64,000 bases of DNA, from positions 2,272,001 through 2,336,000 of the forward strand of contig OZ219747.1 in NCBI GenBank assembly GCA_964291265.2, in the 5' to 3' direction. Positions 7,980 to 19,666 of this stretch are shown here, piece by piece. Position 1 is the first letter of the stretch; each line of letters begins with the position of its first letter. This stretch comes from Alphaproteobacteria bacterium (GTDB lineage: Bacteria; Pseudomonadota; Alphaproteobacteria; SP197). The translations under genes and the position numbers were made by a program. The notes beneath the pieces were generated by a model, which saw nothing but the letters and a program-made list of their open reading frames with translations, had not been told where the DNA came from and did not search any database.

Positions 7980-9086
7980 TCAGTCGTAGCGCAGGTCGTT
8001 CAAACGCCAGTAGGCCTTACTCCCCTTCAGTTTGTCGTTCTCTTCAATCATGTTCCATGGGGTCTGGCCAGCCGCAGTCCGAGCCTCATGATCCGCGCCC
8101 CAATCAAGCAACACTCCGACCACTTCCGGACTGCTGCTGAATGCTGCCGCCCAGTGAAGCGGGGTCCAGCCATCCTGGTCGCGCGCTTCAAGGTCCGCGC
8201 CCCGGTCGAGCAACAGCCCAACCACTTCCGAACTGCTGCTGTATCTCGCCGCCCAGTGAAGCAGGGTCCAGCCACCCTCGTCGCGCGCTTCAAGGTCCGC
8301 GCCCCGGTCGAGCAGCAGCCCAACCACTTCCGGACTGCTGCTGAATGCTGCCGCCCAGTGAAGCGGGGTCCAGCCACCCTCGGCGCGCGCTTCAAGGTCC
8401 GCGCCCCGGTCGAGCAACAGCCCAACCACTTCCGAACTGCTGCTGTATCTCGCCGCCAAGTGAAGCGGGGTCCAGCCACCCTCGGCGCGCGCTTCAAGGT
8501 CCGCGCCCCGGTCGAGCAACAGCCCAACCACTTCCGAACTGCTGCTGTATCTCGCCGCCAAGTGAAGCGGGGTCCAGCCACCCTCGGCGCGCGCTTCAAG
8601 GTCCGCGCCCCGGTCGAGCAACAGCCCAACCACTTCCGAACTGCTGCTGTATCTCGCCGCCCAGTGAAGCGGGGTCCAGCCACCCTCGGCGCGCGCTTCA
8701 AGGTCCGCGCCCCGGTCGAGCAACAGCCCAACCACTTCCGAACTGCTGCTGAATGCTGCCGCCCAGTGAAGCGGGGTCTGGCCACCCTCGGCGCGCGCTT
8801 CAAGGTCCGCGCCCCGGTCGAGCAGCAGCCCAACCACTTCCGGATTGCTGCTTGCTCCCGCCGCAGCATGAAGCGGGGTCCAGCCACCCACGGCGCGCGC
8901 TTCAAGGTCCGCGCCCCGGTCGAGCAGCAGCCCAACCAATTCCGGATTGCTGCTTGCTCCCGCCGCAGCATGAAGCGGGGTCACGCCATCCTGGTCGCGC
9001 GCATTCGGGTCAGCGCCAGCGTCAAGACAACGGGATACGTCCACCAACGTGGCTCGGTTGAAGAAGTCATAGGTGTTCCAGTCGGA
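7980..9086 (-). pseudogene. Secreted ankyrin-repeat protein 1, 3' part (nine 34-aa repeats); 5' part displaced to 19583-19666 by transposon insertion
   Basis: GWTPLHxAA...LLDRGADLEAR repeats; frame reads SDWNTYDFFNRATLVDVSRCL up to the ACAGG TSD; joins in frame with the signal-peptide fragment. Confidence 0.92.
8085..9002 (-). repeat. Nine near-identical 102-bp tandem repeats encoding ankyrin repeats
   Basis: cgcgcgcttcaaggtccgcgccccggtcgagca recurs with 102-bp period. Confidence 0.95.
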
Positions 9087-9182
9087 ACAGGTGAGCGCCT
9101 TCAGGCAGATTGATGATGCGTTGATCGGGCAATTTAGTGGACATGAGCTTTCGCGCTGCGCTTGGTTTGCGGTTCTTGAAGG

Positions 9183-10046
9183 CTACTTGGAAGGGAAGGC
9201 TGGTGTTCGTGCCTTGAGGACGTCGTTCCAGTCTTTGTGTCCGTCTGGGGGTCTCATGCGGAGAGCTCTTGGGTCTTGGCTGACGAGGCGCTCGGCGGCC
9301 TGTTCTCCGACGGGATCGGCGTCGAAGGCGACGAGGATGCGCTTTGGCGTCCAGGCTTCGGCCCATGTTGGGAGACGGTAAGCGATGCCGGCGGTTGACA
9401 GGATCACGGTAGCGGATTGCCGACATTCCTTGAGGCACCATGCGGAGAGGGCGTCGATGGCGCTTTCGGTGATGATGATGGTGCGTGGCATGGAGCGGTC
9501 CACGGGGATCCAGAAGCTGCCGGCGGCCTTGCGTGATCCTCGCGCCATGGCTCTGTACTGCTTTCCGTCTGCGTTGGGGACGGTACCGACGATCTCGGCG
9601 CCGGAGAGGTCTCTTTGTGCGTTGGTGCATGTGAAGACGGCGTTTCTGCGTTCGTCGGCGGCGACGAGGCCGTGCTGTCGGCAAGCGTCCAGGCAACGGT
9701 CTGGCAGGCGGCGGTCATGGGCGAGGTAGTGGCGTACGGCGTGCCAGGTTTCCTCGCAGTGCGTTGGTGTTCTCGGCCCCTTGCCGCCGGAGCGTGCGGT
9801 GAGGAGTGCGACGGCGTCGTTGAAGCTGCAGCGGTGTGCATGCATGACGAGATCGATGGCGCCGCCACCGCCGGACTGGGTGATGTGGTCGAACCAGCGT
9901 TGTCGGTTGACGCTGATGACGGATCCGTGGCGCTTGAAGCGTCGCGGGTCGCGCGGGTCTCTTCGGTAGCCGAGCCGCAGGGCGAGTGGTTCGAGGGGCT
10001 GGTTGCGGATGTCATCGAGATGCTGATTGTCCCAGGACCGGATCAT
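9183..10046 (-). CDS. TOPRIM-domain primase-like protein (DUF3991/Toprim_2-like), 287 aa
   Basis: GGGGAIDLVMH...SFNDAV DnaG-like N-terminal motif, IITESAIDALS, AFDADPVGE (DxD), KDWNDVL; CAGGAGG RBS. Confidence 0.82.
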   Translation of the reverse strand: MIRSWDNQHLDDIRNQPLEPLALRLGYRRDPRDPRRFKRHGSVISVNRQRWFDHITQSGGGGAIDLVMHAHRCSFNDAVALLTARSGGKGPRTPTHCEETWHAVRHYLAHDRRLPDRCLDACRQHGLVAADERRNAVFTCTNAQRDLSGAEIVGTVPNADGKQYRAMARGSRKAAGSFWIPVDRSMPRTIIITESAIDALSAWCLKECRQSATVILSTAGIAYRLPTWAEAWTPKRILVAFDADPVGEQAAERLVSQDPRALRMRPPDGHKDWNDVLKARTPAFPSK

Positions 10047-10081
10047 GGTCTGTCGAGCCTCCTGCGTGGTGGACGGGGGGT

Positions 10082-10146
10082 GGTTCCCGTTGGCGGTTCC
10101 CACCTGAACTCCCAGGGTGAACGGGAACCGGGAACCGGGAACCGCC
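10082..10146. promoter_or_regulatory. Candidate replication origin or protein-binding site: inverted cluster of GGTTCCC x2 and GGGAACC x3
   Basis: GGTTCCC at 10082 and 10095; CGGGAAC tandem at 10122, 10129, 10136; 10-bp perfect inverted repeat ggcggttccc/gggaaccgcc; lies between helicase and primase genes; function inferred. Confidence 0.45.
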
Positions 10147-10180
10147 TGGCGTCGGGGCGTTTTGCGCCTGGTTGTTGCGG

Positions 10181-17512: not shown

Positions 17513-17677
17513 ATGCAAGACCAATGGGATCCAACAATAGGCAGAAAACAAAGACCGGGCGGACCTTCGTCCAATGCCGCACGTTCTCCTGTCGTGGTCA
17601 CCCACTCACACGATCAGCGCCCAAAAGAGCGGTTCTCCGCCAATATCCCGCCGTTCTAAATCGCCGCCGACAACGCA

Positions 17678-18800
17678 CCTTGATGCGGAAGGCGGCCCGG
17701 AGTTCGCTGCTGTCCGGGCATGTCCGCGAGGCGTCCTCGCTGTCGATCACGCGCCTGAGCGGCGTGACCCCCGTCTCGCGGTGTACGCGGCGGTGATACT
17801 CGCGCTCGAACCAGATGACGGTGGCGTCGTTCAGGTCCTGCAGGGTCAGGGTCTCGACGTTCTCGAGCATCGCCATCAGGCGGCCCTCGACCTGGGCGAA
17901 CAGCACCTCCTGCTTGCCGTTCTGGTACGGGCTGCGGACAAGCGTGTGGTGGTGCAGCACGCCGAGGGCGTGCAGTCCCTCCTGCACCTCCCCGGCCGTC
18001 ATCGCCGATCCGTTGTCGGTCAGAAGGGACCGCGGCAGCCCTCGCTTCATGAAGGCCTGGCTGATGCCGTGAACGAAGATCTCCGTGGTCTCCCCGAGAT
18101 ACCACTGCATGTGGCAGACGAGACGCGAATGGTCGTCGATGAAGCTGAGCAGGATCGGCGTCCTCCACTCCCCGGACGGCGTCAGCACGCGACAGGTCCG
18201 CGCATGGTGGAAGTCGGCGTGCCACAGGGCATGGCTGCGCGAGACCTCGTAGCTCAGCACCTCGCGCCCCTCGACCGCAGGCCGCTCCGCTTCACCACCG
18301 AACTTCCGCTGCCGCCGCCGCCGCTCCAGGCCCGCCGAACGCATGACCCGGGTCAGCGTCGCATAGGACGGCATCGGCCCGAGCGAAGGGTCGGCCTCGA
18401 CCAGCGCGCAAAGGTTGTCGTGGTGGAGCTGAACCGACCACGTGGGGTGCGCCCTGTACTGGTCGCGCAAGGCCGCCATCAGCAGGGGCGAGACGCTCCG
18501 CGCACGACCGGCGTCGCAGCGCACCCGACGGCGCAGCGCCCGCACCGGATCCCGGTCGGCCGACCGCGCCTTGTAGTACCAGCGCTCGATCGTCGACACC
18601 GAGAACCGGATCGTGCCGCCCCTGACGGGATGCTCCCAGTCCCGCCGCGACAGCCGTTGAAGCTCGGCCCGCAGACCCCCCTTCGGCGGCGGCGACGCCA
18701 GCAGCGGGCCAACCACCGCAAAGCGCAGCCGCGTCCAGGCGTCCCCGGCGTCCGCTTCGTCCTTCGTCACCACGACAGCCTTCCTCCCTCGTCGTCCCAT
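17678..18800 (-). pseudogene. N-terminal and catalytic part of Mu/TnsB-like (rve) DDE transposase, interrupted by the inner IS21 element
   Basis: HTH (STIERWYY), LWHADFHH, FIDDHSR, LLTDNGSAM, YQNGKQE DDE motifs, YHRRVH. Confidence 0.9.
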
Positions 18801-18822
18801 GGGAGGAAGGCCCTATACGGTC

Positions 18823-19437
18823 CTATGTCATCGCACTACAGGCACTCTCTGCGGGCGGCGACAGACCATCGACGATCCTGCAGAAGCCGGTCCACGGCAT
18901 GAGCCAGACCAGGCTCCGCAGAAGGCGCGATCGAAACGATCCGCCGCGCATCAAGCGCACCAGGGCCACAAGCGGAGGCTCGTCCGCCTCCACCGCCAGA
19001 TCGCCACGTTTCCAGCGCCACGCCGCCGTCGCCGGGAACCTCTCCCGCCACCATCGACGCCACCGGCCAAGCGTCCTCTCCGGGATGCCAGACATGCGGC
19101 TCGCCTTCGCCAGGGGAACACTGCCGCACAGAACCAGGAGGCTCGCAGCCAGGTATACCGGCGCCGCACGGAACCTCCGGCCGAAGAAGCGCACCGAGGG
19201 CGGAGTCGTCCGGCTCCTGCACTCAGCACAGCAGAAGCTGAAACGGCGGTTGTCGCCGCGAAGAGCAGGCGCAAGCGCGTGCGGCTTGCGCGGATACCGC
19301 GCGCTGTGAAGACGACCGCCGCAATGCGGGCATCCCTCCAGGCGGCAGCGCTCCGCCTCGGCCGCATCAATCCTCTCAAGGAGAGGCCAGACATGAGCGC
19401 AGGAAAGTATGGGACCCGGGAAGGAAACGTGCGACAT
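18823..19437 (-). CDS. Zn-finger/HTH accessory protein (DUF6431-like) leading the outer transposon operon
   Basis: CPHCGGRLHSARYPRKP...FSFCCAECRSRTTPPSVRFFGRR and ERTLGRWRRWW HTH-like segment; start uncertain. Confidence 0.75.
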   Translation of the reverse strand: MSHVSFPGPILSCAHVWPLLERIDAAEAERCRLEGCPHCGGRLHSARYPRKPHALAPALRGDNRRFSFCCAECRSRTTPPSVRFFGRRFRAAPVYLAASLLVLCGSVPLAKASRMSGIPERTLGRWRRWWRERFPATAAWRWKRGDLAVEADEPPLVALVRLMRGGSFRSRLLRSLVWLMPWTGFCRIVDGLSPPAESACSAMT

Positions 19438-19582
19438 TGACTGGCCTCCGGTGATCTCACCGTCACGGAGACAAGCCCCTCGGCCGACTTCTTGCAAGTC
19501 GGTCGAGGGGCAATCACCCCAGACCAGCAGACAATTCAAGCAAAACCGACGGAATCCACGTCAAAAATCGCGCAAACGCTTA

Positions 19583-19666
19583 ACAGGGCGCTGCCGAGAT
19601 CGGAGCGGTGCAGACTGACACGGCGCACGCCGTTGCCAGGATCAGTGCTACCTGCATGATTCGCAC
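19583..19666 (-). pseudogene. Orphaned 5' end (signal peptide) of ankyrin protein 1
   Basis: Encodes (VRI)MQVALILATACAVSVCTAPISAAPC, nearly matching paralog MKAALILAAACAVSVCTAPVSAVPC; GGAGGGG RBS upstream. Confidence 0.9.

Follow-up and report, generated by a model that had tools for sequence, protein, structure and literature searches.

An IS21-family element nested in a Tn6049-type transposon within an ankyrin gene, with primase-like genes in both elements

Layers and junctions of the nested locus

We analyzed a 64,000-nucleotide stretch of an alphaproteobacterial genome (contig OZ219747.1 of assembly GCA_964291265.2, positions 2,272,001 to 2,336,000; the window), in which an insertion sequence (IS) of the IS21 family, element A, splits the transposase gene of a Tn6049-type transposon, element B, and B in turn splits an ankyrin gene after its predicted signal peptide. 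Both elements carry a primase-like gene, and B also carries a helicase gene beside an inverted repeat array, features that may help to copy it. The source genome comprises 4.83 Mb in two contigs, and copies elsewhere in it are cited as C2:position. The layers lie as follows.

7980..9091, minus strand: 3' part of the ankyrin gene, with nine scored repeats, most of them near-identical units of 102 bp, and the stop codon at 7980
9087..9091, no strand: left copy of the outer target duplication, ACAGG
9092..19582, minus strand: outer element B, Tn6049 type, 5,160 bp without its insert
12342..12346, no strand: left copy of the inner target duplication, ACGCA
12347..17672, plus strand: inner element A of the IS21 family, 5,326 bp long, whose TGT...ACA ends form imperfect repeats about 50 bp in length
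17673..17677, no strand: right copy of the inner target duplication, ACGCA
19583..19587, no strand: right copy of the outer target duplication, ACAGG
19588..19666, minus strand: 5' part of the ankyrin gene, with the predicted signal peptide
20021..21457, minus strand: intact tandem ankyrin paralog, 478 amino acids, with a single ACAGG at 21350-21354

The breakpoints and duplications of the original prediction, made from the sequence alone, are exact to the base: ACAGG at 9087-9091 and 19583-19587 abuts the ends of the outer element, ACGCA at 12342-12346 and 17673-17677 abuts those of the inner one, and neither recurs within the 200-bp stretches inspected at the four junctions (for each, a given 5-mer would occur at a fixed place by chance with a probability of about 0.001). 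The claims that excision of A would restore the outer transposase in frame and leave an element of about 5.16 kb are borne out by natural alleles, as four uninterrupted outer copies (C2:47062, 460796, 3192044 and 4052073) are each exactly 5,160 bp long, carry one ACGCA at the junction and encode a stop-free transposase of 505 amino acids that reads AAFRIKVRRKVRRSDAT across it, with all five open reading frames (ORFs) open. Moreover, sequencing contigs from three runs of one study (X1, possibly from the source sample, X2 and X3) connect 12341 with 17673, so that the empty site of the inner insertion is present in each and the uninterrupted outer element exists as DNA. Clean 5-bp duplications and identical tips are found in all six outer copies that retain both ends; the sixth holds the inner element at another site, and none of the five other copies has an insert at the site used in the window.

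Both insertions are likely recent, as had been proposed: the outer halves in the window differ from the C2:47062 copy by one base, compared with 15-30 bases among the four intact copies, and the inner copy is 0-1 base from four others. The inner element likely arrived after the outer one, and insertion of the outer and then the inner element in place is the simplest order because the window's outer copy is one base from C2:47062 and its insert site is unshared. Counting against this order, a composite that was already nested could also have been moved in trans. The window's outer copy presumably cannot make its own transposase; it retains its two ends, and the four intact copies could mobilize it.

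On the ankyrin side, the two pieces (translated separately, with X at the break) total a whole number of codons without an internal stop, giving 393 amino acids from ATG 19657 or 396 from GTG 19666, and since a GGAGG lies about 9 nt ahead of the GTG, the 396-residue product is likelier than the 393 residues first proposed. The single ACAGG of the paralog is the meeting point of the left-flank match (84%, 94 nt) and the right-flank match (89%, 88 nt), so that excision of B would indeed rejoin the predicted signal peptide and the repeats in register. Colinearity with the paralog holds at both ends of the protein but not in its middle (9 repeats scored against 11, and 393-396 amino acids against 478). 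The description of the protein as secreted stands as a prediction from hydropathy alone (an R near the start, an 11-residue stretch with a hydropathy of 2.7, and small residues toward the end). As the break falls at the end of this predicted signal peptide, the repeats would be cut off from their export signal, and the interrupted gene would no longer yield an exported product.

Could the outer layer be an assembly artefact, in which repeats were misjoined within a tandem ankyrin pair? The genome consists of 22% repeats, and one X1 contig joins 21367 to 19601 through a 32-bp stretch common to both paralogs, which links the body of the paralog with the region upstream of the interrupted gene, an arrangement absent from the window. 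This join may reflect either a strain rearrangement or graph pruning, and it can arise when short unique links beside deep repeats are pruned. No contig bridging either ankyrin junction, or joining 9086 to 19583, is found among the contigs listed, where gaps prove nothing; an X2 contig runs from the upstream region (25 differences) through 19583 into in-register ankyrin letters, and may represent a paralog. In X1, contig depth sums to about 57 over the unique flanks, to 310-360 over the outer element and to about 2,000 over the inner one; these sums are not copy numbers and were not used. An assembler, however, would not make two exact 5-bp duplications that restore the register of the paralog, and all six outer copies behave alike. 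We regard an artefact as very improbable, and the nested structure, with the identity of both elements as described, as highly probable. Nested insertions are commonplace, and the nesting itself is unremarkable in a genome with 22% repeats; its value lies chiefly in annotation and in the dated trace it leaves of an IS expansion that disrupts ankyrin genes.

Several observations concern the ankyrin genes themselves. The two tandem genes have their 3' ends and about 150 bp downstream in common (7823-8210 and 19873-20251; 87-95%), which by this sequence comparison would mark a tandem duplication predating both insertions. The outer Toprim gene is in frame with the ankyrin 3' part, with one TAG and 30 open codons between them (9048-9185), probably by chance. 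Upstream of the intact paralog lies a many-copy, non-coding-looking repeat of about 440 bp that resembles a miniature inverted-repeat transposable element (window 21515-21970), across which the run contigs join with a 2-bp TA signature. Five further ankyrin loci appear to be damaged (C2:707169-708738, 3304800-3306265, 4125964-4127010, 176650-177524 and 3799005-3799975): one has an early stop and a frame change, one is split by a multi-copy repeat of about 440 bp, one lacks a signal peptide and has a 2.37-kb multi-copy IS just upstream, and two lack an in-frame signal peptide. With the window gene, this amounts to six of nine loci (10 ORFs scored) and suggests decay of the family. No orthologous ankyrin locus was found in 40 relatives (best match, 71% over 467 nt), and matches of the protein to Dot/Icm effector models fall far short of the cut-offs and stem from generic repeats. 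The gene encodes stand-alone ankyrin repeats that follow a predicted signal peptide, in a genome rich in transposons, and both traits are reported for sponge symbionts in the available text of PMC4850255.

The two elements and their kin

The genes of the outer element are listed here.

9183..10046, minus strand: gene 5, DUF3991-Toprim primase-like protein, 287 amino acids; E194, D198, D242, D244 and D272 present
10084..10141, no strand: inverted repeat array, three GTTCCC, spacer, two GGGAAC; directly past the helicase stop codon
10181..11128, minus strand: gene 4, AAA_25 helicase like RepA of RSF1010, with a C-terminal winged helix, 315 amino acids
11125..11955, minus strand: gene 3, ExeA/GspA-like AAA_22 ATPase, 276 amino acids
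11952..12346, minus strand: 3' part of the transposase gene
17678..18800, minus strand: 5' part of the transposase gene, with the rve core; D196, D262, E298
18823..19437, minus strand: gene 1, protein with a Cys ribbon and a helix-turn-helix, 204 amino acids, DUF6431-like (a lead)

The outer element had been called otherwise unrecognizable, a claim that does not hold for an element that has four intact copies in the genome and is a Tn6049-type transposon. A plasmid search placed homologs in Cupriavidus metallidurans CH34 on pMOL28 (one), pMOL30 (one) and the chromid (three), and this distribution matches that of Tn6049. Tn6049 is described in the available text of PMC2864759 as a 3.5-kb transposon with 12 copies in CH34 and a GspA-like ATPase, and that of PMC4739549 gives its terminal repeats and a 4-bp duplication; these repeats lie at 2195 and 5711 of L097 in the pMOL30 copy, which has a 6-bp duplication. 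The three core genes of B are 46, 49 and 53% identical to those of the pMOL30 copy, with their order conserved. Like the Tn6049 group, B has a small ORF followed by a DDE transposase and then a GspA/ExeA-like ATPase, and it shares the imperfect terminal repeats, about 12 bp long, and a duplication within the 4-6-bp range (5 bp in 6/6). Its tips, TGAGCG on the 9092 side and TAAGCG on the 19582 side, compare with TGTGCG and TGTGCA in Tn6049, and L098 bridges the two (11/12 with the right tip of Tn6049). Both are multi-copy and share GATGG motifs near positions 21 and 45, with GATG(G/A) as the form in B; Tn6049 is also found on Pseudomonas aeruginosa pHS87a. In contrast to Tn6049 (about 3,500 bp), B is 5,160 bp long, with a helicase gene, the array and a primase-like gene in place of the small fourth ORF, and we therefore classify it as a variant of the Tn6049 kind and not as Tn6049 itself. 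A further difference is that one tip reads TA, not TG, in all copies here: TA stands on the 19582 side in 7/7 full right-end matches, where relatives have TG, and the six complete copies still show clean 5-bp duplications.

The pairing of transposase and ATPase, the repeated end motifs and the duplication of about 5 bp are shared with Mu and Tn7 and, we presume, with Tn552; unlike in these, no TniQ, resolvase or phage genes were seen in B. Kinship of Mu, Tn7 and IS21 is described in the available part of PMC10293859. The IS481 family, the NCBI label of the homologs, was rejected, as the transposase scored 110 bits on the 5' piece with the whole core, against a cut-off of 224 for NF033577. A search of the outer transposase against PDB sequences gave no significant match (best E, 0.1). 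For gene 1, the DUF6431 lead comes from clusters resembling it, in which 32-44% of members carry that domain.

The inner element holds the following genes.

12777..13307, plus strand: gene 1, Cys-rich, zinc-finger-like protein; start codon uncertain
13340..14833, plus strand: istA, 497 amino acids; NF033546 222 bits, cut-off 160
14830..15531, plus strand: istB, 233 amino acids; PF01695 170 bits; NF038214 190 bits, cut-off 200
15518..16411, plus strand: gene 4, DUF3991-Toprim primase-like protein, 297 amino acids; shares about 30% identity with the B protein and has the acidic motifs
16408..16728, plus strand: gene 5, 106-amino-acid protein; in relatives too, next to other IS genes
16729..17512, plus strand: scrambled tail, with a partial gene 5 repeat and relics of a second Toprim gene

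The original assignment of A to IS21 holds for the family but not for its plain form, to which A adds the Cys-rich gene, the primase-like gene, which overlaps istB, and a 1.3-kb scrambled tail. IstA has the D124, D187 and E233 motifs and exceeds the IS21 cut-off of NF033546; istB lies directly downstream with a 4-bp overlap, and its product scores 170 bits against PF01695, over a cut-off of 24, and slightly under the 200 bits of NF038214. As in IS21 and IS5376, the overlapping pair lies inside TG...CA terminal inverted repeats, with duplications of 5-7 bp: 31 of 37 end pairs are flanked by one (25 of 5 bp, four of 6 and two of 7). The family is defined in the available text of PMC10122671 by two ORFs between terminal inverted repeats; A has five, open in 29-32 of 32 copies, and is therefore an IS21 variant and not the canonical form, differing from IS21 and IS5376 in its 5.3 kb, its Cys-rich, primase-like and 106-amino-acid genes and its tail.

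Inner elements make up 197.6 kb, or 4.1%, of the genome, with 32 uninterrupted copies of 4.9-5.4 kb that are 98.1-100% identical to the window copy. Of 22 other genomes in the genus, three (G004, G009 and G016) keep the order istA-istB-Toprim, and the element in G004 has four genes, 4,045 bp, a 6-bp duplication and no tail. A metagenome scan with the inner Toprim protein confirmed none of 174 candidates. The 106-amino-acid protein is multi-copy in many genomes of the genus, where it stands beside other IS genes (L104-L109), including a different istB and one neighbor that we take to be IS110-like; it travels as a shared passenger among IS elements.

Nesting might also reflect a preference of the inner element for mobile elements as targets. 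Of 31 inner insertions, 12 fall in repeats, which make up 21.8% of the genome (P = 0.025), two inside the outer element (P = 0.019) and four inside the inner element itself (P = 0.037). These P values are, however, uncorrected and ignore insertions lost from essential genes; 14 of the 31 insertions lie in unique DNA, and no target consensus is visible across the insertion sites. We consider such a preference improbable, and the mild excess in repeats (P of 0.02-0.04, uncorrected) is expected from the loss of harmful insertions. Nesting would persist because mobile DNA and a redundant paralog are cheap landing places. Self-nested inner elements occur at C2:4058043-4075257, 295923-308929 and 4237410-4248078, twice within one 17.2-kb copy, a stack that starts about 800 bp from an intact outer copy; such self-insertion shows that there is no strong target immunity.

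A possible replication-start module

The genes that set B apart from Tn6049 have recognizable replication relatives. Gene 4 matches RSF1010 RepA (E = 3e-13), with Walker A, Walker B and downstream motifs aligned, and differs from it in sitting in a DDE transposon and in its added winged helix. We surveyed the best 80 of 141 genome loci related to B, many on short contigs, among which 71 have gene 1, 77 the ATPase, 40 the helicase and four, from two genomes, the Toprim gene. The helicase gene follows the ATPase gene directly in 40/80 loci from several phyla, and in the window the two overlap at the stop codon. Using a relaxed pattern on loci with room only and one locus per obvious multi-copy genome (which dropped 12 extra same-genome copies and loci cut by contig ends), we found the array in 20 of 23 helicase-bearing loci and in none of 23 without helicase, against a background of 0.001 per 300 bp; two of the three misses have half or variant arrays by eye. 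The array is a candidate docking site for the helicase. At one locus, a CHC2 primase zinc-finger gene (L071:9537-9851) follows helicase and array in the slot of the Toprim gene.

The outer Toprim protein resembles T7 gp4 and DnaG by profile and predicted fold. Its profile matches T7 primase (E = 2e-7) with the acidic residues aligned, and the primases DnaG, Twinkle and T7 are matched, at E = 2e-7 to 4e-7, by a structure model built from 118 sequences (model confidence, pLDDT, 92); a single-sequence search of the outer protein against PDB found no match. The E, D and DxD acidic residues of the DnaG/T7 Toprim fold are in place, with E194, D198 and D242 invariant and D244 and D272 nearly so across 118 homologs. 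The window proteins, however, differ from T7 gp4 and DnaG in lying within DDE transposons and in lacking zinc ligands. The inner and outer Toprim proteins are only about 30% identical and were therefore gained separately.

Taken together, we propose that helicase, array and primase-like gene form an optional replication-start module that helps to copy the outer element during or after strand transfer. In this scheme, the RepA-like helicase would bind the adjacent inverted repeat array through its winged helix and load there, and the primase-like protein would prime synthesis; in the IS21-family element, the primase-like gene would perform the priming step alone. Based on sequence and modeled structure, we assign this role of the module a probability of about 40%.

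Several points weigh against it. Among relatives, whose ends were fixed by target duplications, we found three size classes with tips TGAG(C/T)G, namely, 3,445 bp (core), 4,354 bp (with helicase) and 5,169 bp (with helicase and Toprim), and the module is dispensable: the three-gene form has four near-identical copies, the helicase-only form has six, and Tn6049, which lacks it, has 12 copies in CH34 according to the available text of PMC2864759. The helicase-bearing loci are kin, so that 20/23 versus 0/23 overstates their independence. With a deeper Toprim profile, the match to T7 primase was weak (E = 0.006), the TM-scores of the model against primases are just 0.44-0.49, and neither Toprim protein has a zinc-binding Cys/His domain; T7 and DnaG primases need their zinc-binding cysteines. 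In the inner element, no inverted repeat array was found, two of three Toprim relatives have a D-to-N change in the Toprim motif, and the ratio of nonsynonymous to synonymous substitution rates (dN/dS) of the Toprim gene is 0.57, with istA at 0.31 and istB at 0.32 (one pair each at high GC, rough). As a separate observation, the 3,445-bp form (L092-L096) shows apparent duplications of 3, 4 and 5 bp at four sites.

A rival view accepts the structure as real but sees the helicase, the array and the primase genes as passengers, acquired from a plasmid, an integrative element or a phage satellite, that contribute nothing to transposition. Multi-copy forms without the extra genes and the rarity of Toprim genes (4/80 loci, two genomes) fit this view, as do members with other cargo of 1-2.4 kb (L074 and L087) and the debris collected in the tail of the inner element. 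Yet the helicase lies directly past the ATPase in half of the loci, overlapping its stop codon here, and it keeps the array; against L017, the five outer genes have dN/dS values of 0.25-0.36, with the helicase, at 0.25, as low as the transposase, at 0.27 (one pair each, rough). A passenger role is a serious contender that we nonetheless consider doubtful.

Alternatively, the extra proteins may aid transposition without replication, the helicase by remodeling the transpososome or steering it to replication forks and the primase-fold protein by binding single-stranded DNA or a host helicase. An N-terminal domain without zinc ligands and the motif changes in relatives would suit such a role. Set against this, the acidic motifs are invariant or nearly so in the 118 outer homologs and present in both window proteins, and an internal inverted array would fit origin binding better than target choice. 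A non-replicative role appears rather unlikely, and a module that helps to copy B is the reading we prefer.

On a broader and only tentative reading of these gene contents, two unrelated ATPase-assisted DDE families would each have gained a functional primase, the Tn6049 type in addition a helicase with an internal origin, so that on moving they would begin DNA synthesis by themselves and not depend on the host restart primosome; it is likewise a tentative part of this reading that the genome holds active, intact copies of both element kinds. Neither architecture was found in the literature searched, which was mainly open literature, and an earlier description is possible. New here are the presence of both primase-carrying kinds in one genome, a complete outer form that has five genes and four intact copies, and, in an IS21 element, a primase-like gene that retains its acidic residues. 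Tn6049-type transposons are widespread, and in the literature searched their mechanism is unstudied. With its ends known exactly, four intact copies and relatives that naturally have three or four genes, the five-gene form offers a direct test of whether a DDE transposon can supply a helicase, origin and primase of its own. Both elements may bring part of their own DNA-copying machinery, which, if true, would mean replicative movement independent of host priming.

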